From: Methanobacteriota archaeon
GTDB lineage: Archaea > JAADCQ01 > Methanopyri > Methanopyrales > Methanopyraceae
Assembly (NCBI GenBank): GCA_027064425.1
Contig: JAMOPO010000003.1
Location: forward strand, 100,607 to 164,606
DNA length: 64,000 nucleotides
Reading direction: 5' to 3'
Shown here in pieces: positions 18,773 to 45,661 of this stretch. The notes below the pieces were generated by a model. The model had not been told where the DNA came from and did not search any database. It saw only the letters and a program-made list of their open reading frames with translations. Each line of letters starts with the position of its first letter. Position 1 is the first letter of the stretch. Made by a program: the position numbers and the translations under genes.

Positions 18773-18791
18773 CGTTACGAAGTCCGTAACG
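18773..18791. repeat. 19-bp palindrome CGTTACG-N5-CGTAACG
   Basis: CGTTACG-AAGTC-CGTAACG, 8 nt after the tRNA CCA. Confidence 0.85.
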
Positions 18792-18810
18792 AATCTTGGG
18801 GCGTCCCGCG

Positions 18811-19026
18811 TTGGACGAGCTCCGCGACCGGCTACAGGCCGGTCCGTTCGAGGTCGTGGCGGCCAAGCTGGAGGAGGTACTTCAGCGGCTCGACCGACTC
18901 GAGTCCAAGCTCGATGAGCTGCTGGCCCGGGTGGAACGTTTAGAGCGGGAGCTGGGAGAGGAGGCCGGGGAGGGCGATGAGCGTACCGGAGAGCATCGCG
19001 GTGATCGGGCTGGGAGTGGAGGGTAG
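18811..19026 (+). CDS. Small coiled-coil protein (putative)
   Basis: Regular Leu heptads (KLEEVLQRLDRLESKLDELLARVERLE) with host-like codons. The 3' end overlaps the Mur ligase start by 50 nt. Confidence 0.5.
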   Translation: MDELRDRLQAGPFEVVAAKLEEVLQRLDRLESKLDELLARVERLERELGEEAGEGDERTGEHRGDRAGSGG

Positions 19027-20242
19027 GGCCTGCGCCAGGCGACTGGCCGAGTTGGGGATCAGGGTTTACGCCTCCGACCTCAGAACCGACGTGGACACGT
19101 CCGACCTGGAAGAACTCGACAACGTGGAGGTGGACCTGGGGACCCACGATCTGGATAAGATCGCCGAGTGCGAGGCCGTGTACGCGTCCCCGAGCATCCC
19201 CGACGATGCCGAAATCGTTCGGAAAATCCGCGAGCTCGAGGTCCCGTTCCTCGAAGACGCGCTGACGTGGCCCGAAGAGGCCGACTTCATCGTCGTCAGC
19301 GGCACGAACGGCAAGACCACCACGGTTCACATGATCGGGCACCTGCTCGACGCCCTCGGTGTCGACCACCTGCTGGGCGGGAACGCTGGCGGCGGGTTCG
19401 ACGGCTACGCGACACTCTACGTCCGCGCGGAGCTGGAGCGCCCGGACGTGGTCGTATGCGAGGTCTGCGATATGACCCTTGACTACTTCACCACCCGAGC
19501 CCCCGGCTACGACGTGGCCGTGTTCCTGAACTTGGGGAGGGATCACCTCGACTACCACGGGTCGCTGGACCGGTACGCGGAGCGGGCGGCAAGGTTCTGC
19601 GACGAGGCCGAGGTGGCCGTGGTGAAGTGCTCAGGCCGCGAGCGTGACGTGGTGCGCTTGATGTCATCCGACCCCGTCTGCTTCGATCGACTCGATGTGG
19701 AGCCGGAGCTGCGGCTCCGGGGCAGGTTCTACGAGCTGGACGCGAAGGCCGCGATCGCGGCGGTCTCCGAGGTCACCGGGGAGGACCCGGACGAGCTGGC
19801 CGACCTGCTGTCGGACTTCCGGGGCGTGCCGGGCAGGGTGAGGGAGTACAAGGTCGACGGGGGAGCGGTGGTGGTCGGGAAGACGGACAACCTCTCGGCG
19901 CTCCGGGCCGTCGTGCGGGATTACGGACCGCTCGACATCGTGTTCTGGGGCACCCCGAGACCGGGTGAGGACTACCGGATCCGCGGTCTGGGCCGGGTTC
20001 TCAAGGAGGCTGGCGTCGAGGAGGTACTGGTCTTTCCCGGCCTCTCGGAGGAGACCGTCCCGGACGTCCTCCGGGAGCTCGAAGGGTCGGGGTTGGAGGC
20101 CCGTGAGGTTCCCGCGGACGAGGTGGTCGAGCGGGCGCTGGAGGCGGCCAGAGAAGGGGCCCGGGTCGGCATACTAGGGAACGGTCAGCGCCGGATCACC
20201 CGGATGCAGAGGGAGGTGGAGGAGGCGCTGGAAACGCAGTAG
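18977..20242 (+). CDS. MurD-like peptide ligase (pseudomurein biosynthesis)
   Basis: IGLGVEG Rossmann motif, SPSIP, VSGTNGKTTT, GGNAGG, DHLDYH and FRGVPGR. Confidence 0.88.
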   Translation: MSVPESIAVIGLGVEGRACARRLAELGIRVYASDLRTDVDTSDLEELDNVEVDLGTHDLDKIAECEAVYASPSIPDDAEIVRKIRELEVPFLEDALTWPEEADFIVVSGTNGKTTTVHMIGHLLDALGVDHLLGGNAGGGFDGYATLYVRAELERPDVVVCEVCDMTLDYFTTRAPGYDVAVFLNLGRDHLDYHGSLDRYAERAARFCDEAEVAVVKCSGRERDVVRLMSSDPVCFDRLDVEPELRLRGRFYELDAKAAIAAVSEVTGEDPDELADLLSDFRGVPGRVREYKVDGGAVVVGKTDNLSALRAVVRDYGPLDIVFWGTPRPGEDYRIRGLGRVLKEAGVEEVLVFPGLSEETVPDVLRELEGSGLEAREVPADEVVERALEAAREGARVGILGNGQRRITRMQREVEEALETQ

Positions 20243-20275
20243 CCTTTTGATCGTGCCCGCCCCCTCCCGACGGGG

Positions 20276-21028
20276 GTGCCGGGGGTGGGACGCGTCGAGT
20301 TCATCCGCGTGATGGACGAGGTGCCGGAGTGCGAGGTGCTGATCGAGGGGTACCCGGGCATCGGCATGGTAGGCGTAATCGCCGTGCGGCACATGGTGAT
20401 GGAGTTCGGGGCCGAGCCCGCGTTCGTGATGAAGACGGAGGACATGCCCACGGCCGCGATCGTGCACGACGGGCGCGTGTACCCCTCCGCGGGCCTGTTC
20501 GTGAGCGGTGAGGAGGGTCTCGCGTTCTTTTACTCCGAGCAGGCCGATCTGCGCCCGGGCATTGTCCAGGAGATCTCTGAGTCGGTGGCCGACCTCGCGC
20601 GCGAGGTGGGCGTGGAGACGATCGTATGCTTAGCCGGTATCAGGGCCCCGGAGCCGGAGGATGAGCCCAGCCTGTACTACGCCGCCACCTCGGAGCGGGC
20701 GGCCGAGCCGTTCAAGGACGTCGCGGAGCCGCTGGAGCGGGGCACGATCACCGGGGTCAGCGGTCCGCTGCTGCTCGAGGGGGACCTCCGCGGGCTGGAG
20801 GCCGTCTGCCTCCTCGTGGAGACCCCGGGGACGTACCCTGACCCCCGGGCCGCCTCCAAGGTGGTCGAGGCGCTGAACGAGGGGCTGGGGCTGGACATTG
20901 ATACCTCCAAGCTCGAGGAGGAGGCGGAGCGTATCGCCAAGGCGGTGGAGGAGACCATGGAGAGGATGCGCCGCGAGCGCGTGGAGGAGGAAGAGGAGGA
21001 GGCACCCACCGAGCGGATGTTCGTGTAG
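20276..21028 (+). CDS. PAC2-family proteasome assembly chaperone-like protein
   Basis: LIEGYPGIGMVG.IA, ITGVSGPLL, PDPRAA and IDTSKLEEEAE. Confidence 0.88.
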   Translation: MPGVGRVEFIRVMDEVPECEVLIEGYPGIGMVGVIAVRHMVMEFGAEPAFVMKTEDMPTAAIVHDGRVYPSAGLFVSGEEGLAFFYSEQADLRPGIVQEISESVADLAREVGVETIVCLAGIRAPEPEDEPSLYYAATSERAAEPFKDVAEPLERGTITGVSGPLLLEGDLRGLEAVCLLVETPGTYPDPRAASKVVEALNEGLGLDIDTSKLEEEAERIAKAVEETMERMRRERVEEEEEEAPTERMFV

Positions 21029-21040
21029 GGTGGGTCGGCC

Positions 21041-21436
21041 TTGAGAATGCCCGCCATCACCGGTGTGAGCCCCCGAGTGCTCGAGCAGCTGGCCGCCGGT
21101 GGCAGCGTGCAGATCCTGATCAGGAGCAGCAACAACCTGGACGCGGTAAGGAAGCTCGAGCCGGGCGACTACGTGTTCGTGACCAGCGTTGGGAAGCGGG
21201 AGATGAAGGAGGGCGTCGAGGGGATCGTGGCCACTGTGAAGTCCATCCGGATCGTCCACGAGCGGCTCGTCTCGGGCGGGCCCGAGGAGGAACACTTCGA
21301 GCGGGAGTTCGAGGCCGCGAGGATCGTGCTAACGAAATCGGGGCTCGGCAGCGTCCGGGAGGTGAAGGACTACGGGCTCGGGAAGCGCACCGAGGTGGAG
21401 GTAGAGCTGAGGTCGACGGTCTCAGAGGCCTACTGA
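21041..21436 (+). CDS. DUF473-family protein
   Basis: AITGVSP.VL..L, IRSSNN, L.PGD.VFVT and G.EGIVA.V pattern. Confidence 0.7.
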   Translation: MRMPAITGVSPRVLEQLAAGGSVQILIRSSNNLDAVRKLEPGDYVFVTSVGKREMKEGVEGIVATVKSIRIVHERLVSGGPEEEHFEREFEAARIVLTKSGLGSVREVKDYGLGKRTEVEVELRSTVSEAY

Positions 21437-21446
21437 GGGGTAGGGG

Positions 21447-22235
21447 ATGATCCGCTGGCTCGCGGCCTTCCTGGCGGCCCTTACGCTGCTGGCCCCTGCC
21501 ATCATCGCCGTGCGCGACGCCGAGCAGGCGGCCGCGTACGCGAACTCGGTACGACAGCGAATGGGCTGGAAACCGCTGCCGCCGGACCTGCTCCCCTACT
21601 GCGACATGCTCGACGTGGTCACGTGCCGGGTCGGCGGCGTCCCCGTCGCCAAGCTCTTCATCTACCCGCCGCTCAGGCCGGTCACGATCCCCCGGGTGGC
21701 GCCGGGAGAGCGCGAAATCGACGTCGTGAGGGACATCGCCCGCTTCGTCTCCGACACCATGACGTACGACGTGTGCTCCGAGCCGTCGCAGTACACCCCG
21801 GACGTGCTCGAGAGGACCGTGGGTCAGCTGCTGCTCACCGGACACTGGCGGGGCGCGTGCGGCACGGCCGCGTACCTGTTCTCGTACCTGTGCAGGTGCT
21901 ACGGCATCCCGACCCGGATCGTTCTGATCGAGCCCTCGGGCGTTCCCACCGTGGTACCCGGCACCCGGGTGGCACCGGCCCGAGTGATGCTTCACGCCCA
22001 GGTTCAGGTGTGGGTGGACGGTCGATGGATCACCGTGGATCCCTCCGTCGGCATCGTGGGCGACTCCGACAAGCCCGTGAAGGGGAGCAGAGTCCGCCCG
22101 GACGGCACCGTGCTCCAGACGCCCGGAGTCCGCCGGTGGATGGTCGAGTCGCAGGGGCCGGTCGTCTTCTGGACGAACCTCACCGCCCTCGCCCGGTACG
22201 TTCTCCGGCTGTCCGAGGGCATCAGTGCTTCTTGA
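21447..22235 (+). CDS. Secreted transglutaminase-like cysteine protease
   Basis: N-terminal signal/TM segment, GACG..A.LF..LCR..GIP.R and HAQVQV..DGRWITVDP (Cys-His-Asp triad). Confidence 0.8.
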   Translation: MIRWLAAFLAALTLLAPAIIAVRDAEQAAAYANSVRQRMGWKPLPPDLLPYCDMLDVVTCRVGGVPVAKLFIYPPLRPVTIPRVAPGEREIDVVRDIARFVSDTMTYDVCSEPSQYTPDVLERTVGQLLLTGHWRGACGTAAYLFSYLCRCYGIPTRIVLIEPSGVPTVVPGTRVAPARVMLHAQVQVWVDGRWITVDPSVGIVGDSDKPVKGSRVRPDGTVLQTPGVRRWMVESQGPVVFWTNLTALARYVLRLSEGISAS

Positions 22236-24051
22236 GGATCTCCTCGTAGATCCTTCGGACCTTCTTGATCGTGTCCGCATCCTCCGGGCCCAGGTCCTCC
22301 CTGACCCGGACCAGCCTCGGGAACCGCAGGGCGAACCCGGACGAGTACTTCGGGCTCTTTTGGATGTCCTCGAACTCGACCTCGAACACGATCTCCGGCT
22401 TGAACCGGACCTCGCGCCCGGACTCCTCGACCACCAGATCCTTCTCCTCGACGAACAGCTTGGTCAGTCGCTCGAGCGTCTCGTCGTCCATTCCCGTCCC
22501 GACCTTACCCACCTCTAGCAGCTTCTCCTTGTTCTCATCCCACACGGCCAGCAGGTACGAGCCGATCAGTCCCTTCCGCTTGCCCTTGCCCCAGATACCA
22601 CCGACGACCACGCAGTCCAGCGTCTCGAGCACCGGCTTGACCTTGAGCATCTTCTTCCCGCGGACGCCCGGCGTGTAGTCCGCGCTCAGGTCCTTCACCA
22701 TCACGCCCTCGTGACCCATCTCCAGCGCCTCGTGGAACATCTCCGCCGCCTCCTTCGGGTCGTCGGTGATGAGCTGGTCCACGAGCATCACTTTGCCCTC
22801 CTGCTCGTTCACGATCTCCTCCAGGCGCCGGCGGCGCTCCTCGAACGGCGCGTCCACCAGGGACTCACCGTCCACGTACAGGCAGTCGAACAGGTACAGC
22901 TCGACCGGGATCTCGCGCCGGACCTCCTCGATGTCGTACTTCCGCTTGATCCGGTGCAGCAGCTCCTGGAACGGTCGCGGCTTGCCGGTCTCCGGGTCGA
23001 TCGCGACCGCCTCTCCCTCCAGGATGAACTCGTCCGCGTCCACGCACTCCTTGACCGCCTCCACGAGGTCCGGCAGCGCGTGCGTCACGTCCTCGATCCG
23101 GCGCGTGTAGACGCGTACTTCCTCACCGTCCGAGTGCACCTGCACCCGGGCGCCGTCCAGCTTGATCTCAACCGCTCCCTTACCGCCCACCTCCGCCAGC
23201 GCCTCCTTCACGTTCCGCGCCGCCTGCGCGAGCATCGGCTTGATCGGCCGCATCGGCTTCAGGTCGATCTGCTTCAGCCCCTCCTCACCCTCCGTCGCCG
23301 CGACCTTGGCCACCAAGCCGATGTCGTTGGAGAGCATGTGCGCCCGCTCGACCAGCTTCTTGCTGACGCCGAACGCCTGAGAGATGGCCTCCTCGACCGT
23401 GTTCTCGCGCACGCCGGTGCGCAGCTCCTCCAGCACCTGCCGGACCAGGTACCGCGCCTCCTTCGGTCGGGCCCGGGCCAGCAGCCCCATCAGCAGCCTC
23501 ATCTTCCGCTTGACCGCTCCCTCCCCCTCCACCTCCGCGACCTTTTCGAACGTCTCTCGCACCTCCTGAACGGTCAGCGGCTGCGAGGAGAATAGCGTGG
23601 ACGTCTTCTTCCTCCTCAACAGCTCCTCGGCCACCGAGCCCAGGTCGCCCAGCTGCTTGAACAGCTCCGTCACCTCGGACTCGGAGGCGCCCGTCGCCTG
23701 CGCGATCGTCTTCTGCATCAGCTTGGTACCGATGCCCAGCTCCCGCGAGTCCCAGCCCGGGAAGACCTGGTTGGCCAGGAAGACGGCCACCGTGTCGAGC
23801 GCGTCCTCAGGGCACTGCCGCAGGAACTGAGCGATGAGCGCGATCTTCGCCTTTCGGGAGCTGATCCGCTCCAGCCGCTCGAACGCCTCCGCCAGCGAGG
23901 AGTAGTACACGTCCCCATCCGTGGTCTTAACCTCCAGGCTGGGCGAGGGCTCACGCTCCCTTCTCTCCTTCTCCTCCTTACCCTTACCCTTGGGAGGAGA
24001 GGTTATGAACGAGTCCAGCCTGCGCGAGCCCGGGGGGCGCGTCCGGGCCAC
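22222..24051 (-). CDS. lig: ATP-dependent DNA ligase
   Basis: EIKLDGARVQVH (motif I), EGVMVK, MLKVKP, LDCVVVG and ALRFPR. Confidence 0.97.
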   Translation of the reverse strand: MARTRPPGSRRLDSFITSPPKGKGKEEKERREREPSPSLEVKTTDGDVYYSSLAEAFERLERISSRKAKIALIAQFLRQCPEDALDTVAVFLANQVFPGWDSRELGIGTKLMQKTIAQATGASESEVTELFKQLGDLGSVAEELLRRKKTSTLFSSQPLTVQEVRETFEKVAEVEGEGAVKRKMRLLMGLLARARPKEARYLVRQVLEELRTGVRENTVEEAISQAFGVSKKLVERAHMLSNDIGLVAKVAATEGEEGLKQIDLKPMRPIKPMLAQAARNVKEALAEVGGKGAVEIKLDGARVQVHSDGEEVRVYTRRIEDVTHALPDLVEAVKECVDADEFILEGEAVAIDPETGKPRPFQELLHRIKRKYDIEEVRREIPVELYLFDCLYVDGESLVDAPFEERRRRLEEIVNEQEGKVMLVDQLITDDPKEAAEMFHEALEMGHEGVMVKDLSADYTPGVRGKKMLKVKPVLETLDCVVVGGIWGKGKRKGLIGSYLLAVWDENKEKLLEVGKVGTGMDDETLERLTKLFVEEKDLVVEESGREVRFKPEIVFEVEFEDIQKSPKYSSGFALRFPRLVRVREDLGPEDADTIKKVRRIYEEILKKH

Positions 24052-24125
24052 GATCCACTCCCCCCGATCACCCGTGTTCGAGCCGTAAAAAACGCATTCG
24101 CGATCGGTCGGGCGGCACTCGCGCC

Positions 24126-25028
24126 ATGGTGATGGTGGAACGGGTGGTCCAGGCGTTCCCGCAGATGGAGCCGGAGGACTTCAAGGTCCTTCGCGCCCTG
24201 GAGCTCGAGATGCGCCACCACGAGTGGGTCCCGTTCGAGCGCCTGCTCGAGCGGACGGGGTTCGACGAGAAGGAGCTCGGCTACCGGCTCTCCCGGCTGG
24301 ACCGGTGGGACATGATCATCCGAACGCGGCGTGAGACGGTCGGCTACCTCGGTTACCAGCTACGCCCGGAGGGGTACGACGCCCTCGCGCTCCGCGTCCT
24401 GGTGGAGGAGGGCATCATCGAGGGTCTAGGGCCCGAGATCGGCGTGGGCAAGGAGGCGGACGTGTACCTGGGCATCTCGCCCAAGGGCGTCGAGCTGGCG
24501 GTCAAGTTCAACCGGATCGGGCGGACGAGCTACACCAAGATCAAGCGCTACCGGGAGTACGTGAAGGATAAGCGCCACATCTCCTGGCTCTACGTCAACC
24601 GGCTGACCGCCGAGCGGGAGTTCGAGGCGCTCCTGCACCTGTACCCGGAGGGCGTGCCCGTGCCGCGGCCCGTTTACCAGAACCGGCACGTGCTGGTCAT
24701 GACGAAGTTCGATGGAAAGGAGCTGGCGGAGACCCGCGTCGACGACCCGGAGCGGGTCCTCCGGGAGATCCTGGACGCTTACCATCAGGCCCTCGAGGTG
24801 GGAGTAGTCCACGGGGACCTGAGCCAGTTCAACATCGTGGTCGAGAACGACGGCAGCGTGCTCCTGATCGACTGGGCGCACTGGGTGGACCTCAGTCACC
24901 CGTCCGCGTCCGAGCTGATCGAGCGGGACGTCCGAAACGTGTGCGAGTACTTCCGGCGAAAGTACAGAATCTCGGTAGACTACCGGGAGTTCCTGCCGGA
25001 TGAGGAGGTTTACGGGGATCGAGGGTAG
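24126..25028 (+). CDS. rio2: RIO2-type Ser/Thr kinase
   Basis: N-terminal wHTH (MRHHEWVP, GYDALAL), GVGKEADVY, HGDLSQFNI and IDW. Confidence 0.92.
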   Translation: MVMVERVVQAFPQMEPEDFKVLRALELEMRHHEWVPFERLLERTGFDEKELGYRLSRLDRWDMIIRTRRETVGYLGYQLRPEGYDALALRVLVEEGIIEGLGPEIGVGKEADVYLGISPKGVELAVKFNRIGRTSYTKIKRYREYVKDKRHISWLYVNRLTAEREFEALLHLYPEGVPVPRPVYQNRHVLVMTKFDGKELAETRVDDPERVLREILDAYHQALEVGVVHGDLSQFNIVVENDGSVLLIDWAHWVDLSHPSASELIERDVRNVCEYFRRKYRISVDYREFLPDEEVYGDRG

Positions 25029-25144
25029 TCCCCGATGAGAGGGTGGCCCGTTACCGACGGCGGGTTGGCGGATCGGCGACACCTGCGCCCGTCTCGCAAC
25101 CGTAAAAAGCGTCCGCCGGCGAGGGGCTGCCGGGGCGGCCGCGG

Positions 25145-26044: not shown

Positions 26045-26075
26045 CGCCCCGTCCGCTCCCCCACCAGGGCGCTCC

Positions 26076-26870
26076 ATGAGGATCGGCTCGTACCAGCTCG
26101 GAGGCTCCTACCGCCCCGCGGTCTTCACGGACGACGGGGTGAAGGTGTACCAGGCCTCCTTCCGCGAGTTCCTCCAGGCCGCCCACTCCGGCGATCTCGA
26201 CGACCTAGACTACCAGCGAGTCCCCCTCCGCGAGGGCAGGATCGGTCCCCCGGTCCCCCGGCCGCCGAAGATCATCTGCTTCGGGCTGAACTACCGGGAG
26301 CACGTCGAGGAGCTGCGAGAGATGGGAATGGAGGTCCCGGAGAAGCCGGTGATGACCATGAAGGCGCCCACCGCCGTCATCGGCCACCTGGACACCGTCG
26401 TGATCCCGCGCGATGTGGGCCGCGTCGATCACGAGCTGGAGCTCGCGGTCGTGATCGGCGAGCGCTGCCGCCGAGTCTCCCCGGAGGAGGCTCGGGACGT
26501 TGTCTTGGGCTTCACGATCATCAACGACGTGACGGCCCGCGACGTCGAGCGGGAGGAGGGCCAGTGGGTCCGGGCCAAGAGCTACGACACGTTCGCGCCC
26601 ATGGGCCCCTGGATCGAGACGGAGCTTGAGCCCGAGAGCCTGGACATGCGCCTCGAGGTCAACGGTGAGGTCCGGCAGCGGGCCAACACGGACGACATGG
26701 TCATGGACCCGTACGAGCTCGTCGCGTACACCTCACAGGTGATGACGCTCGAGCCCGGGGACGTGATCGCGACGGGCACGCCACCCGGCGTCGGGCCCAT
26801 GGAACCCGAGGACAAGGTCGAGCTGACCATCGAGGGCATCGGCACGCTGACTCACTACGTGGGCAGGTAG
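26076..26870 (+). CDS. Fumarylacetoacetate hydrolase family protein
   Basis: KIICFGLNYREH, DHELELAVVIG, NDVTARD, KSYDTFAPMGP and TGTPPGVG. Confidence 0.92.
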   Translation: MRIGSYQLGGSYRPAVFTDDGVKVYQASFREFLQAAHSGDLDDLDYQRVPLREGRIGPPVPRPPKIICFGLNYREHVEELREMGMEVPEKPVMTMKAPTAVIGHLDTVVIPRDVGRVDHELELAVVIGERCRRVSPEEARDVVLGFTIINDVTARDVEREEGQWVRAKSYDTFAPMGPWIETELEPESLDMRLEVNGEVRQRANTDDMVMDPYELVAYTSQVMTLEPGDVIATGTPPGVGPMEPEDKVELTIEGIGTLTHYVGR

Positions 26871-28442: not shown

Positions 28443-29434
28443 GCGGGCTGAACGTACGGGAGGAGCTGCTATCGGACCTGGAGGAGTTCCTGAGGTCAGG
28501 TGGGCACGAGGTCGTCCGGGTAGACCGCGCCTGCTTCGACCTCCTCGTGATCACGAGGGACGGGCGCTCCTTCATCGTCAAGGTGCTCACGAACGTGGAC
28601 GGGCTGCGGAAGGAGGTAGCGGAGGACCTCAAGGTGATCTCCCACTTCCTGGAGGCCGTGCCGGTTATCGTCGCGCTGCGTCGCCGGTCCGGCCCTCTGG
28701 AGCGCGGGGTGGTGTATCACCGGTACGAGATCCCCGTGATGGAGCCCATCACGTTCGCGAAGACCATCGAGGGCGAGCCGCCCAGGGCCGTGGCCGATCG
28801 GGGCGGGAAGTACGTCGAGGTCAGGGAGGAGGAGGTCGAGAGCGTCCGCGTGTCGAGCGTGCGGCGCCGGCAGCTGAAGCTGGAGGGTGGTCGGGTCAGT
28901 CTGGCCCGGGCCGAGGAGGCGGAGATCGAGGGCGTCCCGGTGCGCTTTCGGGTGCCGGAGCGCGTCGACACGGGCAAGGACCGGATGACGCGGTTCGAGC
29001 GCCGGGTGGCCAAGCACCTCGAGCGGATGGGCGCCGAGCGCACGGGCAAGGTTCGCCGGGCTCCCTTCGAGCTCCTGGCTAAGGACGGGGACACGGTCCT
29101 GGTGCAGTCGGAGGACGTGAGCAGCCGGGAGTCGATGGCCCTCCGGGACGTGGTTCAGGTCACGGGCTCGATCGGGTTCGTGGTCACGCGGAAGCGGCGC
29201 AAGCGCGCCTCGTGCCTGCCGACCATCGACCTGGAGACGCTGGAGGATCTGAAGGACATCGAGGACCTGAAGGAGTACCTGGAGGAGCACGACCCGTCGG
29301 AGAAGATCCGCGAGCTGGTCGAGGAGGCCGGGGTCACCTCGCCCAAGGAGATCGCGAGGCGCACGGGGCTCAGCGAGTCCGTGATCCGGGAGCTCCTCAG
29401 GCGCATGACCGCCGAAGGCGACCAAAAGTTTTAA
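28439..29434 (+). CDS. Archaeal HTH transcriptional regulator (COG1395-like)
   Basis: CFDL...[31 protein letters not shown] and APFE. C-terminal HTH. Typical tiaS/thermosome neighbourhood. Confidence 0.82.
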
Positions 29435-29486: not shown

Positions 29487-31133
29487 ATGGCCATGCTAGC
29501 TGGTGACGGGCGGCAGGTCCTGATCCTGCCCGAGGGTTACCAGCGGTTCGTGGGTCGTGACGCGCAGCGGATGAACATCATGGCGGCGCGAGTCGTCGCC
29601 GAGACCGTGCGGACCACGCTCGGTCCGATGGGCATGGACAAAATGCTCGTCGACGAGATGGGCGACGTGGTCGTCACCAACGACGGCGTGACCATCCTCG
29701 AGGAGATGGACATCGAGCACCCAGCCGCCAAGATGGTCGTGGAGGTCGCGAAGACGCAGGAGGACGAGGTCGGTGACGGTACGACCACGGCCGTCGTGCT
29801 GGCCGGTGAGCTGCTGCACAAGGCCGAGGACCTGCTGCAGCAGGACATCCACCCGACCGTGATCGCGCGCGGCTTCCGGATGGCGGTCGAGAAGGCCGAG
29901 GAGATCCTGGAGGAGATCGCCGAGGAGATCGACCCGGACGACGAGGAGACGCTGAAGAAGATCGCGAAGACCGCGATGACCGGTAAGGGCGTCGAGAAGG
30001 CCCGAGACCACCTGGCCGAGCTGGTCGTGAGGGCCGTCAAGCAGGTGGCCGAGGAGGAGGATGACAAGATCGTCATCGACACGGACCACATCAAGCTGGA
30101 GAAGAAGGAGGGTGGCGGCCTAGAGGACACCGAGCTGGTCCAGGGTATGGTCATCGACAAGGAGCGAGTGCACCCGGGCATGCCGCGGCGGGTTGAGAAC
30201 GCCAAGATCGCCCTACTGAACTGCCCGATCGAGGTGAAGGAGACCGAGACGGACGCCGAGATCCGGATCACGGACCCGGAGCAGCTGCAGGCCTTCGTCG
30301 AAGAGGAGGAGAAGATGCTGAAGGAGATGGTGGACAAGATCGCCGAGACCGGCGCGAACGTGGTCTTCTGCCAGAAGGGTATCGACGACCTGGCCCAGCA
30401 CTACCTGGCGAAGAAGGGCATCCTGGCCGTCCGGCGCGTCAAGAAGTCCGACATGCAGAAGCTGGCTAGGGCCACCGGCGGTCGGATCGTGACCAACATC
30501 GACGACCTGAGCGAGGACGACCTAGGTGAGGCCGAGGTCGTCGAGGAGCGGAAGGTCGCGGGCGACAAGATGATCTTCGTCGAGGGCTGCAAGGACCCGA
30601 AGTCGGTCACCATCCTGATCCGCGGCGGTACGGAGCACGTCGTGGACGAGGCCGAGCGAGCCATCGAGGACGCGATCGGAGTCGTGGCCGCCGCGCTCGA
30701 GGACGGCAAGGTCGTGGCCGGCGGTGGCGCGCCAGAGATCGAGGTCGCCCGGCGGCTGAGGGACTACGCGGACAAGGTCGAGGGCCGCGAGCAGCTGGCG
30801 GTCGAGGCGTTCGCGGACGCGCTGGAGATCATCCCGCGGACGCTGGCCGAGAACAGCGGACTGGACCCGATCGACGTGCTGGTGCAGCTGCGAGCCAAGC
30901 ACGAGGAGGGTGACGTGACCGCCGGCGTCGACGTCTACGACGGCGAGATCAAGGACATGCTCGAGGAGGGCGTCGTCGAGCCACTGCGAGTGAAGACGCA
31001 GGCACTGGCGAGCGCCACCGAGGCGGCGGAGATGATCCTGCGGATCGACGACGTCATCGCCGCCCGGGAGCTGAGCAAGGAGGAGGAAGAGGAAGAGGAG
31101 GAGAGCGGCGGTAGCAGCAGCACCGAGTTCTAA
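29487..31133 (+). CDS. ths: Thermosome (group II chaperonin) subunit
   Basis: [25 protein letters not shown] and GGGAPE. Confidence 0.98.
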
Positions 31134-31173
31134 ACCCTCACCCCCTCACGCCCAAAACATTCTTCCCGCAGAT

Positions 31174-31209
31174 CGTTACGAACCTCGTATCGTTATGGCT
31201 CTCATAACG
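31174..31209. repeat. Two overlapping copies of the 19-bp palindrome (17-bp period)
   Basis: CGTTACG-AACCT-CGTATCG (31174-31192) and CGTTATG-GCTCT-CATAACG (31191-31209). Confidence 0.8.
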
Positions 31210-38036: not shown

Positions 38037-41000
38037 TTGGTAAGCACCGAGCTCGCGATCGCCGCCATCGGAGCGGGCATAGCGGCGGGCGTGGCGGGAG
38101 TAGGTTCGGGTATCGGCCAGGGTATCGCCGCGGCGGCCGGTGCCGGAGCGGTGGCCGAGGACGAGCGAGCCTTTGGTAAAGCGATCGTGTTCTCGGTGCT
38201 GCCGGAGACGCAGGCGATCTACGGGCTTCTCATCGCGATCCTCATCCTCGCGGGAGTTGGGCTGCTGGGCGCGGCCAAGACGATCACGATGGGCGCCGCT
38301 CTGGCCGCGCTGGGCGCGGGCCTGGCGGTCGGTATCGCCGGCATCTCAGGCATCGGACAGGGCATCGCGGCCGCGAGCGGAATCGGTGCCATCCTTAAGG
38401 AGGAGGGCCTGTTCGGTCGCGCGATCGTGTACTCCGTCCTCCCGGAGACGCAGGCGATCTACGGCCTCCTCGTCGGCATCATTATACTCGTAGGGGCCGG
38501 GCTGCTGGGTGGCGGAGCCGGCAAGGTCTCCATCGGTACCGGTCTAGCCGCGATCGGCGCCGGGCTGGCGGTGGGACTGGCCGGTACCTCAGGCATCGGA
38601 CAGGGCATCGCGGCGGCGAGCGGGATCTCCGCCATCCTGCGGCGAGAGGAGCTCTTCGGACGGCTTTTGGTCTTCTCGGTACTGCCGGAGACGCAGGCGA
38701 TCTACGGCCTGCTCGTGGCGGTGTTGATCGCGCAGTTCTTGGGAATCCTTGGCGGACCGAGCTCCGTCTCCGTGGGCGCGGGCCTGGCCGCGCTGGGCGC
38801 GGGCCTGGCGGTCGGGCTGGCGGGAACCTCCGGAATCGGTCAGGGAGTTGCCGCGGCCAGCGGAATCAGGGCCATGGTCGAGAACGAGGGGATCTTCGGT
38901 CGGGCGCTCGTGTTCTCCGTCCTCCCGGAGACGCAGGCGATTTACGGCCTGCTGGTCGCGATCCTGGCACTGTTCTCGCTGTTGAGCCCGTCGCTTAGCC
39001 TGGCGGCCGGGATCGTGGCCCTGGGAGCGGGTCTAGCGGTCGGTATCGCCGGCACCTCGGGCATCGGACAGGGCATCGCAGCCGCGAGCGGTATCTCCGG
39101 CGCCCTGAAGCGGGAGGAGCTGTTCGGCCGTCTGATCGTGTTCTCCGTCCTCCCGGAGACGCAGGCCATCTACGGACTGCTCACGGCGATCATGGCCCTG
39201 TTCCTCGTGGGCGGCAGGGCGGACCTGGCGGCCGCGCTCGCGGCGCTGGGTGCGGGCCTCGCGGTGGGCTTCGGAGGCACGTCCGGCATCGGGCAGGGTA
39301 TCGCGGCGGCCAGCGGAATCCGGGCAATGGTCGAGCGGGCCGAGCTGTTCGTCCGCGGGATGGTCCTGTCCGTGCTGCCCGAGACGCGAGCGATCTACGG
39401 ACTGCTCATCGCCATCCTGGCGCTGTTCATGATCAAGTCCGGCTCGCTAGGCGCCGGCCTGGCGATGGTCGGAGCCGGCCTCGCGGTGGGTCTCGTGGGA
39501 GTCTCGGGCATCGGCCAGGGCTTCACGGCGGCCAGCGGATCCGCCACCCTGGTGAAGCACGAGGGCTTCTTCGGGCGGGCGATTATCTTCTCGGTGCTGC
39601 CGGAGACGCAGGCGATCTACGGACTGCTCACGGCGATCCTCGTGATGATGTTCGCCGGCCTCCTGGGCGGAGGCGCCGGCAACGTGGGCGTGGGAGCCGG
39701 TCTGGCCGCGCTGGGCGCGGGCCTGGCGGTCGGGCTGGCGGGCAGCTCAGCGATCGGCCAGGGTATCGCGGCGGCGAGCGGCGTGAGCACGTCCGCCGAG
39801 CGCTCGGAGCTGTTCGGCCGGTCGATCGTGTTCTCCATCCTACCGGAGACCCAGTCGATCTACGGGCTGCTCATCGGCATCATGCTGGCGGTGTTCGCGC
39901 TGAAGGCCAGCACACCGATCGCCGCAGGACTCGCCGCGATCGGGGCCGGTCTCGCGGTCGGTATCGCGGGCTTCTCGGGCATTGGTCAGGGAATCGCGGC
40001 GGCGGGCGGCATCGGAGCGCTGGAGCGGGACCCAGGCTCCTTCGGTAGGTCGCTGATCTTCTCAATCCTGCCGGAGACGCGGTCCATCTACGGACTGCTC
40101 GTGGCGATCCTGGTCATGGTAGGCCTGGGCATGATGGGGGGCGCGTTCGGCGGCAACGCGGCGGTGGGTCTGGCGGCCATTGGAGCGGGTCTGGCGATCG
40201 GCATGGCGGGCCTCTCCGGAGTGGGCCAGGGAGTCACGGCCGCGACCGGTATCAGCAACGTCGTCCGGGACCCGGGGCTGTTCGGACGGTCGCTGCTGTT
40301 CTCGGTGCTGCCGGAGACGCAGGCGATCTACGGGCTGCTGATCGCGATCATGGTGATGATGTTCCTGGGCATCCTGGGCGGCTCGAAGACGCCGACGCTC
40401 GGGGCGGGGCTGGCGGCGCTCGGTGCGGGACTCGCCGTCGGTATCGCGGGCAGCTCGGGTATCGGTCAGGGACTGTCCGCCGCGGCCGGTACGGTCGCCA
40501 TCGGCGAGCGGACGGAGCTCTTCGGCCGGTCGATCGTGTTCTCCATCCTGCCGGAGACGCAGGCGATCTACGGACTGCTCATCGGCATCCTGGCGATGAT
40601 GCCGATCATGACGGGGGCCGGCAGCCTCAGCGTGGCGGCGGGCCTGGTGGCCGCGGGGGCCGGACTGGCGGTGGGAGTTGCGGGCACGTCCGGTATCGGT
40701 CAGGGAATCGCGGCGGCGGGCGGCACGGGCGCGCTGTCCGAGCGGGGCGAGCTGTTCGCTCGGTCGCTGGTCCTGTCGATCCTGCCGGAGACGCGGTCCA
40801 TCTACGGCATGCTGATCGCCATCATCGGGATGTCGATGGCGGGACTGCTCGGCGGGACCCCCAAGGCGAGCCTGGCGGCCGGGCTCGCGGCGATCGCGGC
40901 CGGCATCTCCGTCGGCTTCGCGGGACTGTCGGGTGTGGGTCAGGGCGTCACCTCGGCCCGAGGCTCCGCCTCGATGGCCAAGCGCGAGGAGGCGTTCGGC

Positions 41001-41096
41001 CGCTCGCTGATCTTCTCCGTCCTGCCGGAGACGCAGGCGATCTACGGGCTGCTGATCGCGATCCTGGTCGTCTTCACCGCCCTCGCCGCCGCCTAA
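38037..41096 (+). CDS. atpK: A-type ATP synthase subunit K (c), 13 fused hairpin repeats
   Basis: I counted 13 copies of the G.GQG...LPET(Q/R).IYG hairpin in one 1019-aa ORF. Confidence 0.96.
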   Translation: MVSTELAIAAIGAGIAAGVAGVGSGIGQGIAAAAGAGAVAEDERAFGKAIVFSVLPETQAIYGLLIAILILAGVGLLGAAKTITMGAALAALGAGLAVGIAGISGIGQGIAAASGIGAILKEEGLFGRAIVYSVLPETQAIYGLLVGIIILVGAGLLGGGAGKVSIGTGLAAIGAGLAVGLAGTSGIGQGIAAASGISAILRREELFGRLLVFSVLPETQAIYGLLVAVLIAQFLGILGGPSSVSVGAGLAALGAGLAVGLAGTSGIGQGVAAASGIRAMVENEGIFGRALVFSVLPETQAIYGLLVAILALFSLLSPSLSLAAGIVALGAGLAVGIAGTSGIGQGIAAASGISGALKREELFGRLIVFSVLPETQAIYGLLTAIMALFLVGGRADLAAALAALGAGLAVGFGGTSGIGQGIAAASGIRAMVERAELFVRGMVLSVLPETRAIYGLLIAILALFMIKSGSLGAGLAMVGAGLAVGLVGVSGIGQGFTAASGSATLVKHEGFFGRAIIFSVLPETQAIYGLLTAILVMMFAGLLGGGAGNVGVGAGLAALGAGLAVGLAGSSAIGQGIAAASGVSTSAERSELFGRSIVFSILPETQSIYGLLIGIMLAVFALKASTPIAAGLAAIGAGLAVGIAGFSGIGQGIAAAGGIGALERDPGSFGRSLIFSILPETRSIYGLLVAILVMVGLGMMGGAFGGNAAVGLAAIGAGLAIGMAGLSGVGQGVTAATGISNVVRDPGLFGRSLLFSVLPETQAIYGLLIAIMVMMFLGILGGSKTPTLGAGLAALGAGLAVGIAGSSGIGQGLSAAAGTVAIGERTELFGRSIVFSILPETQAIYGLLIGILAMMPIMTGAGSLSVAAGLVAAGAGLAVGVAGTSGIGQGIAAAGGTGALSERGELFARSLVLSILPETRSIYGMLIAIIGMSMAGLLGGTPKASLAAGLAAIAAGISVGFAGLSGVGQGVTSARGSASMAKREEAFGRSLIFSVLPETQAIYGLLIAILVVFTALAAA
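38180..41070 (+). repeat. 13 diverged intragenic tandem repeats (about 235 bp average period) in atpK
   Basis: Recurring DNA cores CCGGAGACGCAGGCGATCTACGG and GGCATCGG(A/C/T)CAGGG. Confidence 0.9.
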
Positions 41097-41119
41097 CTCC
41101 CCTTCCGGGGTGAGCCGGC

Positions 41120-41722
41120 ATGGGCCTGGAGGAGCTGGAGAAGAAGATCATTGAGGAGGCCGAGCGCGAGGCGAAGGAGATCATCGAGGAGGCCGAGGAG
41201 GAGGCGGAGAAGATCCTGGATAAGGCCAAGCGTGAGGCCGAGGAGAAGCGCCGGGAGATCCTCGAGCAGGCCAGGCGGGAGGCTGAGACGCGGAAGCGTC
41301 GGGAGATCGCTCAGGCGAAGCTCGAGGTACGGCAGCTTCGACTCAAGGTCAAGGAGGAGTGCATCGAGGAGGCGATGGAGCGGGCCAAGGAAGAGATTCG
41401 GAAGATGGCGGAGGACGGGAGCCGCCGCTACCTGGAGTTCCTCGAGCGGGCGGCGATCGAGGCCGCGAGAGCGCTGTCGTCGGATAAGGTGATCCTGAGG
41501 GTCAACGAGCGCGACCAGGAGGCGATGGAGGAGCTCATCCCCGACGTGCGCGTGGAGGTGGACAAGGAGATCGAGCTGGGCGACCCGGTGGACATCCTGG
41601 GCGGCGTGATCGCGGAGAGCGAGGACGGGTCCGAGGTCTTTGACAACTCCGTGGAGGCCCGGCTGAAGCGCATGAGGTCCGAGCTGGTGAGGAGGGTCTC
41701 CGAGACCCTGTTCGGGGGCTAG
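41120..41722 (+). CDS. atpE: A/V-type ATP synthase subunit E
   Basis: N-terminal coiled coil and ILGGVI....DGS..FDNS.EARL. Confidence 0.93.
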   Translation: MGLEELEKKIIEEAEREAKEIIEEAEEEAEKILDKAKREAEEKRREILEQARREAETRKRREIAQAKLEVRQLRLKVKEECIEEAMERAKEEIRKMAEDGSRRYLEFLERAAIEAARALSSDKVILRVNERDQEAMEELIPDVRVEVDKEIELGDPVDILGGVIAESEDGSEVFDNSVEARLKRMRSELVRRVSETLFGG

Positions 41723-41728
41723 CGGTCC

Positions 41729-42856
41729 GTGGACCTGCTTCACCTCCCCACCCAAGACTACGTCCTGATCGCGGTGGGCGTGATCGCACTGGTCACGGTT
41801 CTCACCATCGTCCTCTCGATCCCGATCACCGAGGTGATCTGGAAGTACGCCCCGTACGCCTACCCGCTGCCCAAGGCCAAGGCGCTGGAGGCCGAGACGC
41901 TGGACGAGGACGAGTTCGAGGAGCTGAAGGACGCCTCGCTGCGCGACCTGGTGGCCAGGCTGGAGGAGCTGGGGCTGGAGCCCGAGTCGGTCAGACCCCT
42001 GCTACAGGGCAACACCGAGCCCGTGGAGGTGGCCATCAAGCGCCGCGCCGTCGAGTCCGTGATGGACCGGCTGGCGGAGTCCGGTCCGGAGGATCTGGAG
42101 GCGATGGTCCGCGCCCTGATGGCGCGGTACGAGCTCGAGGACCTGAAGGCCGTGATCCGGGCCCTGCACGCCGGTGAGGAGCCGGGTGAGCTCGTGGACC
42201 GGCCCGTCCTGCTGGACGAGGACGAGTGGCGGGAGGTCCGGGACGCGCAGTCGGTCCAGGAGGTCGTCGAGCGGTTACGAGGCACACCGTACGATCGGTA
42301 CCTGGAGGAGGCGGTGCGGGAGTACGAGGAGACGGGGTCCCTGTTACCCGTCGAGCTCGCGCTCGACCGCGCTTACTACGAGCACCTGTGGGAGCTGGTG
42401 ACCGGCGAGGAGGTGGACGAGGAGCTCGCCCGGCTGCTGGGGCTGGAGATCGACCTATACAACGTGGAAGTGGCCCTCCGCGGCGCCCTGCTGGGGCTGG
42501 ACCCGGAGACGATCCGCCGGGCGATGGCCGACGGTGGCTGGGAGCTGGCGGAGTGGAGGAAGCGGGAGCTTGCGGAGGCGGAGGATCCGGGCGAGGTCGT
42601 GGAGCAGGTGGCCAACACCTCCTTCGGCCGGTACCTGGAGGAGGCGATGGAGGAGTACTCCGAGTCCAAGGACGTTGAGATCCTGGACCGGGCCGTCCGG
42701 CGCGCTCGGTACGAGACGGTGTCCGACCTCATCCAGGGGGACATCGTGGGCGCGCCCGCGGTCGTCCAGGCCGTGTACGCCAAGCAGCGCGAGGTGGACA
42801 ACTTAATCGCCCTGGTCAACGCGAAGGTCGCCGACGTCGAGTTCGCCCCGGTGTAG
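41729..42856 (+). CDS. atpC: A/V-type ATP synthase subunit C
   Basis: YAPYAYP, L.GTPY, LALDRAYY and EIDLYN. Confidence 0.92.
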   Translation: MDLLHLPTQDYVLIAVGVIALVTVLTIVLSIPITEVIWKYAPYAYPLPKAKALEAETLDEDEFEELKDASLRDLVARLEELGLEPESVRPLLQGNTEPVEVAIKRRAVESVMDRLAESGPEDLEAMVRALMARYELEDLKAVIRALHAGEEPGELVDRPVLLDEDEWREVRDAQSVQEVVERLRGTPYDRYLEEAVREYEETGSLLPVELALDRAYYEHLWELVTGEEVDEELARLLGLEIDLYNVEVALRGALLGLDPETIRRAMADGGWELAEWRKRELAEAEDPGEVVEQVANTSFGRYLEEAMEEYSESKDVEILDRAVRRARYETVSDLIQGDIVGAPAVVQAVYAKQREVDNLIALVNAKVADVEFAPV

Positions 42857-42868
42857 GGGGCCCGCCCC

Positions 42869-43222
42869 ATGGCGTACACCGTCGCCGCGATCGTCGACAG
42901 CCAGATCGCCCCCGGCTTCCGCCTCGTCGGAGTGCGCACGATCGAGGCGGACGAGGTGAACCCGAAGGACGCCGTCCGCGAGCTGGCCTCCGACCCCGAG
43001 GTGGGCGTGATCATCCTCACCGAGGACGTCGCGGAGGAGGCGAAGGAGGTCATTGAGGAGATCCAGGAGGAGAAGCTCTCGCGCGGTGAGCCGACGCCTA
43101 TCTTCGTAACCATACCCGGACCCGAGGGACCGAAGGAGGAGGTCGAAATCGAGGAAATTGTTAAGAAAGCGGTCGGTGTCGAGATCGACGTTGAGAAGAT
43201 CGAGGGGCGGGGGAGGCCGTAG
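42869..43222 (+). CDS. atpF: A/V-type ATP synthase subunit F
   Basis: [21 protein letters not shown] and [10 protein letters not shown]. Confidence 0.93.
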
Positions 43223-43223
43223 C

Positions 43224-45005
43224 ATGGCCAAGGTGAAGGGTGAGATCGTGAAGGTGGCGGGTCCGGTGGTCGAGGCGGTCGGCTGCGAGGGCGCGCGGAT
43301 GTACGAGGTCTTCCGGGTCGGCGACGAGGGCCTGATCGGAGAGGTGATCAACGTAGAGGGCGACCGGGTCACGATCCAGGTCTACGAGGAGACGGCCGGC
43401 CTCCAGCCGGGTGAGCCGGTCAAGGGCACCGGCGAGCTGCTGTCCGTGGAGCTGGGTCCGGGCCTGCTGACCCAGATCTTCGACGGCATCCAGCGCCCAC
43501 TGCCCAAGATTCGGAAGAAGGTGGGCGACTTCGTCGAGCGCGGAATCATGCTGCCGGCTCTGGACCGGAAGAAGAAGTGGGAGTTCACGCCGAAGGTGGA
43601 GGAGGGGGACAAGGTCGAGGAGGGCGACATCCTGGGGACCGTGCCCGAGACCGAGCTCATCGAGCACAAGATCATGGTCCCGCCCGGCATCTCGGGTGAG
43701 GTGATCGAGATCGCGGCCGATGGCGAGTACACGGTCGAGGAGACGATCGCGGTCATCGAGGACGAGGAGGGCGAGGAGCACGAGATTAAGATGTACCAGG
43801 AGTGGCCGGTGCGCCGGCCCCGGCCGTACAAGCGCAAGCTCGACCCGGAGGAGCCCCTGATCACGGGCCAGCGCGTGATCGACACGTTCTTCCCGGTCGC
43901 CAAGGGTGGTACCGCCGCCATCCCCGGCCCGTTCGGGAGCGGTAAGACGGTCACCCAGCAGCAGCTGGCGAAGTGGGCTGACGCGCAGGTCGTCGTGTAC
44001 ATCGGGTGCGGCGAGCGAGGTAACGAGATGACGGAGGTGCTGGAGGACTTCCCGGAGCTGGAGGACCCGCGCACGGGCAAGCCGCTGATGGAGCGCACGA
44101 TCCTGGTCGCGAACACCTCCAACATGCCGGTGGCCGCGCGGGAAGCGTGCATCTACACGGGCATCACCATGGCGGAGTACTACCGGGACATGGGCTACGA
44201 CGTGGCGCTGATGGCGGACTCCACGTCCCGGTGGGCCGAGGCCCTGCGAGAGATCTCCGGTCGACTGGAGGAGATGCCGGGTGAGGAGGGCTTCCCGGCG
44301 TACCTGGCGTCCCGGCTGGCCGAGTTCTACGAGCGGGCGGGCCGCGTCGTGTGCCTGGGTTCCGACGACCGGATCGGCTCCGTCACGGTCGTGGGCGCGG
44401 TGTCCCCACCGGGCGGCGACTTCTCGGAGCCGGTGACGCAGAACACGCTCAGGATCGTGAAGGTGTTCTGGGCGCTGGACTCCAAGCTGGCGGACCGACG
44501 GCACTTCCCGGCGATCAACTGGCTGCAGTCCTACTCGCTGTACCTGGACGACGTCGAGGACTGGTGGCACGAGAACGTGGGCAAGGACTGGCGGAAGCTG
44601 CGCGACGAGGCGATGGAGATCCTGCAGCGAGAGTCGGAGCTGGAGGAGATCGTCCAGCTGGTCGGACCGGACGCCCTGCCGGAGAGCGAGCGCCTGATCC
44701 TCGAGGTTGCCCGGATGATCCGCGAGGACTTCCTGCAGCAGAACGCGTTCCACGAGGTGGACACGTACTGCCCGCCGGAGAAGCAGTATGAGATGCTGAA
44801 GACGATCATCCACTTCAAGGAGCGCGCGGAGGAGGCCCTGGACAAGGGCGTGTCCATCGACGACATCCTGGAGATGGAGGTCATCGACGACATCGCCCGC
44901 ATGAAGGAGATCCCGAACGAGGAGGCGGTCGAGAAGATCAGGGAGATCCGGAAGAAGGTGGACAAGGAGTTCGACAAGCTCATCGAGGAGGCCGAGGCCT
45001 CCTAG
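43224..45005 (+). CDS. atpA: A/V-type ATP synthase subunit A
   Basis: GPFGSGKT Walker [21 protein letters not shown] and PPGGDFSEP. No intein. Confidence 0.98.
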
Positions 45006-45027
45006 GCCCCCCACGCCCCTCCCGCAT

Positions 45028-45046
45028 CGTTACGGGGGTCGTAACG
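45028..45046. repeat. 19-bp palindrome CGTTACG-N5-CGTAACG
   Basis: CGTTACG-GGGGT-CGTAACG. The spacer is the trmY SD and the last G is the first base of the GTG start. Confidence 0.85.
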
Positions 45047-45627
45047 TGCGGGAGTTCCTCGTGATCTTCAACGAGGCCCCCACCACCCCGGAGCGCGTCA
45101 AGCTGAAGGACCTCCCCGGCTCCGGCCGCTTCGACCTCGTGTGCCGCGTCACGACGCAGGCCCTGCTGTACTCCCACGGCGTGCGCACGAACTCGGTGGT
45201 GCACCTGCTCCTGCGCGGCCCGGACGACCCGCCCAAGCTGATCACGGTCACCGGGCGCCGGGTGCGGCGACTGTACCCCGACGAGCGGACCACGGCCATA
45301 CACCTGCGGCGCGCCTTAGCCGCCGAGCCCGAGACGGAGCCGCACCCCGGGTTCTACGTCCGCAGGATGGACCTGAAGGACTTCCTGAACGAGTTGAAGG
45401 GAGCCACGGTCTACTACCTCAGCGAGGATGGAAAGCCCCTTGAGGAGGTGGACCCCGAGGAGGACGCCGTCTTCGTGCTCGGGGACCACGAGGGTCCGAC
45501 CTCGGAGCAGGACGAACTACTGCGCAGACGGGCGGACTCCGTGATCTCGCTGGGGCCGATTCCTTACCACGCCGACCAGTGCATCGTGATCATCCACCGG
45601 TACCTCGACGTCAAAACCGAGTCTTGA
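45046..45627 (+). CDS. trmY: tRNA (pseudouridine54-N1)-methyltransferase
   Basis: DLPGSGRFDLVCR, SHGVR, PDER, FVLGDH.G and ISLGP..YHADQCI (SPOUT). Confidence 0.93.
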   Translation: MREFLVIFNEAPTTPERVKLKDLPGSGRFDLVCRVTTQALLYSHGVRTNSVVHLLLRGPDDPPKLITVTGRRVRRLYPDERTTAIHLRRALAAEPETEPHPGFYVRRMDLKDFLNELKGATVYYLSEDGKPLEEVDPEEDAVFVLGDHEGPTSEQDELLRRRADSVISLGPIPYHADQCIVIIHRYLDVKTES

Positions 45628-45642
45628 GCGCCTTGGCCGGTA

Positions 45643-45661
45643 CGTTACGGACCCCGTAACG
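45643..45661. repeat. 19-bp palindrome CGTTACG-N5-CGTAACG
   Basis: CGTTACG-GACCC-CGTAACG, 15 nt after the trmY stop. Confidence 0.85.

Follow-up and report, generated by a model that had tools for sequence, protein, structure and literature searches.

What is the short palindrome that recurs between the genes of a Methanopyrus-lineage archaeon, and what is it for? The window is a stretch of 64,000 nucleotides (nt) from a Methanobacteriota archaeon of the Methanopyraceae (GenBank assembly GCA_027064425.1, contig JAMOPO010000003.1; here G000:C3:100607-164606, where G000 is the genome under study). The palindrome reads CGTTACG-N5-CGTAACG. The element marks the downstream ends of transcription units: those of all tRNA, 5S rRNA, signal recognition particle (SRP) RNA and RNase P RNA genes, those of 16S and 23S rRNA as well in a sister genome (G002), and those of some 55-75 protein-coding units, many of which should be highly expressed. 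The analysis demonstrates this placement, conservation across the genus and at orthologous places, a rigid spacing of the half-sites and an absence of selection for base pairing. The reading we favour, to which we give about an even chance, is that the element is the site of a dimeric DNA-binding factor and acts as a bidirectional, sometimes leaky, signal for the end of transcription.

The window holds three perfect copies, and none is found in 100 dinucleotide-preserving shuffles. When the pattern is relaxed to CGTTAYG-N5-CRTAACG with at most two mismatches, there are six matches against 0.32 expected: the perfect copies at 18773, 45028 and 45643, one at 31174 with one mismatch, the variant at 31191 (CGTTATG/CATAACG), and one at 28735 with two mismatches. 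The copies and one weaker candidate are listed below; no strand is assigned to any of them.

18770 to 18794: perfect copy, core 18773-18791 CGTTACGAAGTCCGTAACG, flanks AAT/AAT, 8 nt past the CCA end of tRNA-Arg
31174 to 31192: copy with one arm mismatch, CGTTACGAACCTCGTATCG, 40 nt past the thermosome stop, overlapping the 31191 copy by 2 nt
31191 to 31209: variant copy with both arms altered, CGTTATGGCTCTCATAACG, 57 nt past the thermosome stop
45028 to 45046: perfect copy, CGTTACGGGGGTCGTAACG, 22 nt past the atpA stop
45643 to 45661: perfect copy, CGTTACGGACCCCGTAACG, 15 nt past the trmY stop
9616 to 9634: degenerate candidate, CGTTCTTGGGGAGCTAACG, 8.9 bits, flanked by lysS and a MarR/TrmB-like gene

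A sequence-only reading of the window had reported the three perfect copies and the overlapping pair at 31174/31191, and all of these are confirmed. It had also proposed degenerate copies at 9616 and 45676, and these are indistinguishable from chance. The first scores 8.9 bits with the weight matrix described below, a level at which a reversed-genome control already gives three matches per genome; the second (CGTT-N11-AACT) is sub-threshold. The match at 28735-28753 (CGTGATGGAGCCCATCACG) is an unrelated 7-5-7 palindrome that scores below 8 bits and is attributed to chance.

The whole genome (1,539,955 bp in 57 contigs, 67.8% G+C) contains 21 perfect copies, and 86 with at most two arm mismatches. 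With its flanks, the consensus is (G)AAT-CGTTAYGA-NNN-TCRTAACG-AT(T), in which G2, T3, A17 and C18 are near-invariant; the best form is AATCGTTACGA-N3-TCGTAACGATT. The core form can be written as ATYGTTA, nine variable bases and TAACRAT, a dyad-symmetric element of about 23 bp. It is 39% G+C inside a 68% G+C genome. A symmetrised weight matrix built on this genome finds 126 copies at 10 bits and 131 at 8 bits, compared with one and three in the reversed genome, and 108 copies score at least 20 bits (the strong copies). Re-training the matrix on the sister genome caused it to drift into A+T-rich islands and CRISPR-like repeats (306 matches vs 106 in the control at 10 bits), and the original matrix was retained.

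The two halves keep a fixed distance. YGTTA-N9-TAACR occurs 65 times in the genome under study and 59 times in the sister genome, against 0-5 occurrences at each other spacing tried, while the spacers vary in sequence from copy to copy. The constant spacing seen by the sequence-only reading holds genome-wide. A direct-repeat reading, in which each arm is nearly CGT-W-ACG, was dropped: conservation is mirrored about the centre and does not repeat from arm to arm.

Genes were called with a crude codon-bias caller (1352 coding sequences, CDS; 83% coding) and tRNAs with aragorn. The strong copies are distributed as follows.

Outside predicted CDS: 107 of 108
Inside a CDS: 1
In convergent gaps: 33, of 97 such gaps
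In tandem gaps: 54, of 369
In divergent gaps: 4, of 185
At contig edges: 16

The sister genome, a complete contig of 1,694,969 bp with 61.2% G+C, gives a similar picture. Its 118 non-overlapping copies (16 bits) include two inside a CDS, and they occupy 31 of 131 convergent, 77 of 519 tandem and 8 of 217 divergent gaps. In tandem gaps of the genome under study, the 3' end of the upstream gene precedes the copy by a median of 22.5 nt. The restriction to intergenic DNA and the presence between convergent genes, both seen in the window, hold genome-wide.

A palindrome of this size could also be an operator for a regulator of the downstream genes, and some copies do abut the next start. The distance to downstream starts is nevertheless broad, from -1 to 1965 nt, and copies are rare in divergent gaps but frequent between convergent genes, a setting in which promoters are not expected. 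The operator reading is largely refuted by this distribution and is very improbable.

Stable RNA genes show this placement. In the genome under study, 38 of 39 aragorn calls (CCA-ending or tRNA-Sec) have a copy 7-13 nt past their end, 25 of the 38 at exactly 8 nt; the sole call lacking the motif has a 487-nt 'intron' and is probably false. In the sister genome all 30 calls have a copy 7-11 nt past the CCA. RNase P RNA, SRP RNA and 5S rRNA have a copy downstream in both genomes; in the genome under study the core lies 26 nt from the model end of RNase P RNA and 14 nt past 5S rRNA. Copies also lie 84 nt past 16S and 147 nt past 23S rRNA in the sister genome, where the 16S case is scored as one of the 'divergent' copies. 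As a separate observation, the same tRNA genes recur with near-identical downstream flanks on very small contigs of the genome under study (tRNA-His on C3, C16 and C18; tRNA-Ser-TGA on C29 and C32), which suggests assembly duplicates or strain heterogeneity.

About two thirds of the copies lie away from tRNA genes. In the genome under study a copy lies at most 120 nt from some 57 CDS 3' ends, those of the thermosome and atpA among them, and the 7-mers of the motif are the top enriched words in the 60 nt past CDS stops (ATCGTTA, for instance, occurs 27 times against 2.9 expected). In the sister genome a family scan took in 64 upstream CDS, 19 of which have no family. Among the upstream genes are those for McrB, McrA, thermosome, aEF-2, S10, L10, S15, L7Ae, EF-1beta, histone, GlnA and Mch, many of which are presumably expressed at very high levels.

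A C-rich box, CYC[CA]CGCC (as in CCCTCACGCCC), also occurs past stops, for example at 31133-31160 and 45006-45022 in the window. It is found in the 60 nt past 52 of 1325 stops in the genome under study, compared with 22 antisense and 9 in the last 60 coding nt. The counts in the sister genome (1491 stops) are 23, 13 and 3.

The canonical archaeal oligo-T terminators are rare in the genus. Runs of five or more T follow 32 of 1325 predicted stops in the genome under study and 42 of 1491 in the sister genome, so another end signal is needed. Nor do such runs accompany the element: a T5+ or A5+ run lies within 30 nt of 4 of 108 sites in the one genome and 4 of 118 in the other.

The window itself shows what these sites look like at individual genes. 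The relevant genes, together with one copy just outside the window, are as follows.

1 to 307, minus strand: SRP (7S) RNA gene, 3' end cut off by the window (Rfam RF01857, 101.9 bits)
G000:C3:100556-100574, left of the window: strong copy, 39.8 bits, 17 nt past the SRP RNA 3' end
18687 to 18764, plus strand: tRNA-Arg (TCG) gene, whose 3' end precedes the 18773 copy
29487 to 31133, plus strand: thermosome (Cpn60/TCP-1) gene (PF00118, E 8.9e-204), upstream of the double copy
43158 to 45005, plus strand: A-type ATPase subunit A gene (atpA), identified by domain match, start codon uncertain
45046 to 45627, plus strand: trmY-like RNA methyltransferase gene (PF04013 alignment begins at residue 1)

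The labels tRNA-Arg, thermosome, atpA and trmY, which had been assigned without database searches, hold. On the other side of the 31191 copy, a convergent minus-strand CDS has its stop 17 nt away. The trmY GTG start begins with the final G of the 45028 copy.

The element is a property of the genus. The perfect pattern is present in all five further genus genomes and in none of 15 genomes of other families; ATYGTTA-N9-TAACRAT occurs 13-43 times per genome in the six genus genomes and 0-1 times in the 15 outgroups. Conservation across related genomes, which had been proposed as a check, is thus found. With the matrix of the genome under study, the sister genome yields 123 copies at 14 bits against two in the control.

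Individual sites are conserved too. Of the 108 strong sites, 92 have an alignment in the sister genome within 150 nt, and 69 of these 92 have a copy at most 80 nt from the projected place; flanking genes are 67-86% identical between the two genomes, and some tRNA sites cross-match paralogues. The remaining alignable sites, about a quarter, are best read from the alignments as turnover. All strong copies of the window have a counterpart at the orthologous place: the thermosome double copy is matched by a single copy, the 45643 copy by a weaker one, and the atpA|trmY copy by an identical one, spacer included.

Turnover of this kind, with more than 100 copies of a short extragenic palindrome, might point to a selfish repeat resembling the bacterial repetitive extragenic palindromic (REP) sequences, or to a small mobile module, transposase-spread, with tRNA ends as its target. 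Yet a search for the Y1/RAYT transposase (PF01797) is negative in all six genus genomes, while the control search is positive in 6 of 14 known genomes. Orthologous places retain their copies despite the divergence of the flanking genes, spacers differ between copies, every stable-RNA gene carries a copy, and the flanks, inspected by eye, contain neither copied tRNA ends nor target duplications. A mobile origin can hardly be expected on these grounds.

Is the palindrome read as DNA or as RNA? An RNA-level signal could take several forms. A protein-held hairpin in the 3' trailer could direct an endonuclease to cut a few bases upstream, or the hairpin could be a terminator or stabiliser; the target of a tRNA 3' maturation enzyme, the role on which Tong et al. 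speculated (BMC Genomics 2017;18:27), belongs here as well. The motif always lies within transcribed 3' regions, and its distance to the CCA is narrow, as such a signal would have it.

Base pairing, however, is not under selection. For an 11-pair hairpin in the 118 copies of the sister genome, standard pairs fill 71.0% of cells compared with 71.2 ± 0.7 after shuffling of partners (323 of 500 shuffles are as high or higher), and the covariation score is 0.159 against 0.160. In the genome under study, paired cells make up 79.2% against 79.4 ± 0.6. Since pairing is no higher than in shuffled copies, the palindrome amounts to two mirrored sequence preferences. The sequence-only reading had noted symmetric changes in both arms of the 31191 copy; these are real, but such compensatory double changes are not above chance across all copies of either genome.

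The details of the would-be stem agree. At its three innermost 'pairs', Watson-Crick combinations occur in just 24-30 of the 72 oriented copies of the sister genome (about 40%). Among sense-strand copies there, A·C mismatches number 74 and G·U pairs 44, with a similar balance in the genome under study. The conserved bases lie in the stem and not the loop, the centre is free to vary in sequence, and the loop length is invariant. The stem does not extend past AAT/ATT: 36 of 81 copies pair at positions -3/23, with G·U in eight more, which is the expectation for G+C-rich flanks.

ViennaRNA at 98 °C folds none of 81 copies, nor a perfect copy. Growth is reported at 84-110 °C (Tong et al. 2017). No Rfam family matches the sites at gathering score; matches are limited to tRNA and SRP RNA in the window and to tRNAs in the 20-kb stretch of the sister genome described below. 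Intrinsic terminators have a stable G+C-rich stem, variable in sequence, and then a U run, and the motif differs from them in G+C content, T runs and folding.

RNA ends bear on the same question. Assembled RNA contigs from four runs of one study, which hold sequence of the sister genome, were mapped on its stretch G002:36001-56000 (L086); the evidence rests on the rows listed, 32 out of 283 contig pieces together with 24 out of 77 loose ends. Long A or T loose ends are taken as 3' ends, presumably originating from library tails. RNase P RNA (Rfam match at G002 40217-40574) has an A-tailed 3' end at L086 4590 in all four runs, 8 nt before the core at 4599. Contigs from three runs of one sample start exactly at L086 1435, which is 9 nt from the core at 1407-1425 and 16 nt past the stop of a minus-strand gene for a 317-aa secreted protein; one of them carries 22 extra letters off the locus. 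The RNA ends of tRNA-Ala, tRNA-Ile and tRNA-Trp lie at the CCA.

Among the contigs listed for this stretch, none crosses a site. Several sites have no contig cover, for example in bins 17343-18009 around the copy at 17686, and no inference is drawn from them. Contigs ending at L086 1101-1103, 20 nt before the core at 1123, have no tail and are treated as contig ends only. The mRNA with contigs from 1435 has a small GGGG-CUUUCUUU-CCCC hairpin at its end (L086:1435-1451), which may set a stable 3' end independently of the motif.

RNA ends just before the core, 8 nt away in the A-tailed case and 9 nt in the mRNA, would also suit an endonuclease cut. Further points can be read in favour of an RNA-level signal. 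In section 13 of Su et al. (2013), tRNA precursors are reported with 5' leaders and introns, not with 3' trailers, and 3' processing is placed first. The genus RNase Z homologue (G000:C3:77395-78207 and orthologues) matches the whole TIGR02651 model at 173-187 bits in five of six genus genomes, with only a partial match of 72 bits in G005. The family cut-off is 293 and outgroups score 263-376; the large shortfall marks the enzyme as divergent. In addition, the base past the core is T instead of the mirror A in 14 of 40 tRNA sites. Set against the pairing results and the many copies away from tRNA genes, these points leave an RNA-level signal unlikely. The REP-like 3' RNA hairpin, one of the options listed by the sequence-only reading, is likewise disfavoured: pairing is not selected, nothing folds at 98 °C, PF01797 is absent from the six genomes, and in the 20-kb stretch with mapped contigs the one A-tailed end and the contig ends near sites lie before the motif. 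The dimeric protein site, with a terminator or insulator role at 3' ends, came from the same list and fits best.

Some copies lie inside operons. In the copy between atpA and trmY, the spacer GGGGGT is identical in G001, G002, G003 and G005 and stands 7 nt before the trmY GTG (window 45035-45048); judged from this arrangement, it is probably the trmY ribosome-binding site. If so, transcripts that pass through the motif serve as the message for trmY. Another conserved copy lies between mcrB and mcrD in the methyl-coenzyme M reductase operon (G002 L031:12358-12445), followed 3 nt on by GGGGG and then a TTG start. Where a ribosome-binding site follows the copy, a processing site would be a suitable reading as well. 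Past mcrA, the sister genome has a T-rich stretch and a separate 7-bp hairpin, then the motif.

At the level of DNA, a further explanation is a site for a topoisomerase or nucleoid protein that handles supercoiling, or forms a chromatin boundary, behind heavily transcribed genes and does not itself end transcription. Gyrase binds BIME/REP elements (BIME, bacterial interspersed mosaic element) in E. coli, and Methanopyrus is known for an unusual topoisomerase set. Such a site, by analogy, would draw on the same DNA-level evidence as the favoured reading and could account for the association with genes expected to be very highly expressed and with convergent gaps, for the tolerated operon-internal positions, and for the restriction of the motif to the genus. 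Its function would not, however, require the close placement seen here, 7-13 nt past each tRNA end and 14-40 nt past stops.

Nor would such a site be expected to have gene polarity. The gene-proximal half-site scores higher at 47 vs 23 sites in the genome under study and at 50 vs 22 in the sister genome; at tRNA sites it is the better kept half in 31 vs 9 and 27 vs 5 cases. Moreover, T5+ runs are so rare that nothing else conserved would remain to end tRNA transcription. A topoisomerase or nucleoid-protein site therefore has a low probability.

A dimeric protein site acting as terminator or insulator fits best because the dyad symmetry comes without covariation, the spacing is rigid, the placement at 3' ends is strict and convergent gaps are enriched. 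A sequence-specific protein with two-fold symmetry (a homodimer) would recognise the element as duplex DNA, and the complex would stop or release RNA polymerase a few bases before the site, from either direction. Because of this, one site could close two convergent genes. Action from either side would also explain why a third of convergent gaps contain the element and divergent gaps hardly ever do. Because the core follows tRNA CCA ends by 7-13 nt, the transcripts would have hardly any 3' trailer, or none. With the ribosome-binding site of the next cistron inside the motif or right after it, termination at operon-internal sites (atpA|trmY; mcrB|mcrD in the sister genome) would have to be partial, or leaky.

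Several points weigh against this reading. No binding protein is known for the motif, and no search for one was made. Protein roadblocks such as TTF-I, Reb1 and EcoRI-Q111 stop polymerase at 11-16 nt. RNA ends 8-9 nt before the core, or about 5 nt before the conserved AAT, are closer than these distances, and with a simple static roadblock the tRNAs would lose part of their acceptor stems. The separation of the half-site centres, about 14-16 bp, differs from the single helical turn that is usual. Conserved strong copies within operons stand right before ribosome-binding sites, and polymerase must often pass them. Polarity comes from the tRNA sites and is not significant at tandem CDS sites (16 vs 14 in the genome under study, 23 vs 17 in the sister genome). 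The RNA evidence consists of part of the contigs from four runs, on one 20-kb stretch, and the CDS calls come from a crude caller. Finally, the energy parameters at 98 °C are extrapolated and ignore the very high intracellular salt of the organism.

A stronger form of the favoured reading can be stated, although it is tentative and rather doubtful. Methanopyrus may end the transcription of its most-used genes by a dedicated sequence-specific dimer, so that primary tRNA transcripts stop on the encoded CCA or only a few bases from it and 3' trailer processing is largely unnecessary. The element would then substitute for the oligo-T terminators, which are scarce in these G+C-rich genomes. If this is true, the dimer and its site would be the first protein-and-site terminator system in Archaea.

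The stopping of archaeal RNA polymerase is understood mainly through oligo-T signals and the factors FttA and Eta. A dimeric factor that reads the motif would add a new kind of archaeal termination mechanism and offer, ready-made, a portable terminator part that works in both directions in hyperthermophiles. Should the function instead be topological or lie at the RNA level, the element still marks where about 120 transcription units end in each genome and so helps to annotate the genus.

The motif is not entirely new, although the sequence-only reading knew of no description. Tong, Schliekelman and Mrazek (BMC Genomics 2017;18:27) report CGTTA(N)9TAACG about 10 bp past tRNA genes of M. kandleri AV19, specific to this group of organisms. 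The pentamer pair at a fixed 9-nt distance and the place downstream of tRNA genes recur in both genomes compared here, and the lineage restriction is borne out by the six genus genomes and 15 outgroups. In the accessible part of that account the motif is tied to tRNA genes only; here, most copies follow protein-coding or other RNA genes, six genus genomes carry the motif, and pairing is unselected. A literature search at the level of titles and abstracts found no further paper on it. What is new is the generality (mRNAs and all stable RNAs), the genus-wide conservation, the evidence against a hairpin and the positions of RNA ends.

Similarities to other known systems are partial. The element resembles bacterial REP/BIME sequences in being a short extragenic palindrome past genes and between cistrons, with more than 100 copies; it differs in having no RAYT transposase, no hairpin covariation, a rigid spacing and a copy at every stable-RNA gene. 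It shares a position right past genes with oligo-T termination and with termination assisted by FttA/aCPSF1, and FttA is present in all six genus genomes. Unlike archaeal oligo-T terminators, it is a conserved palindrome with no U-tract.

The literature search found no roadblock-type termination factor described for Archaea. Outside Archaea, TTF-I and Reb1 at Pol I terminators and mTERF1 in mitochondria are protein-roadblock terminators. The element would be comparable to these systems in having a DNA site just past highly transcribed stable-RNA genes, with RNA ends, in the few cases mapped, shortly upstream. Unlike them, it is dyad-symmetric, seems to be bidirectional, has RNA ends closer to the site in those cases (8-9 nt), and serves mRNAs too.

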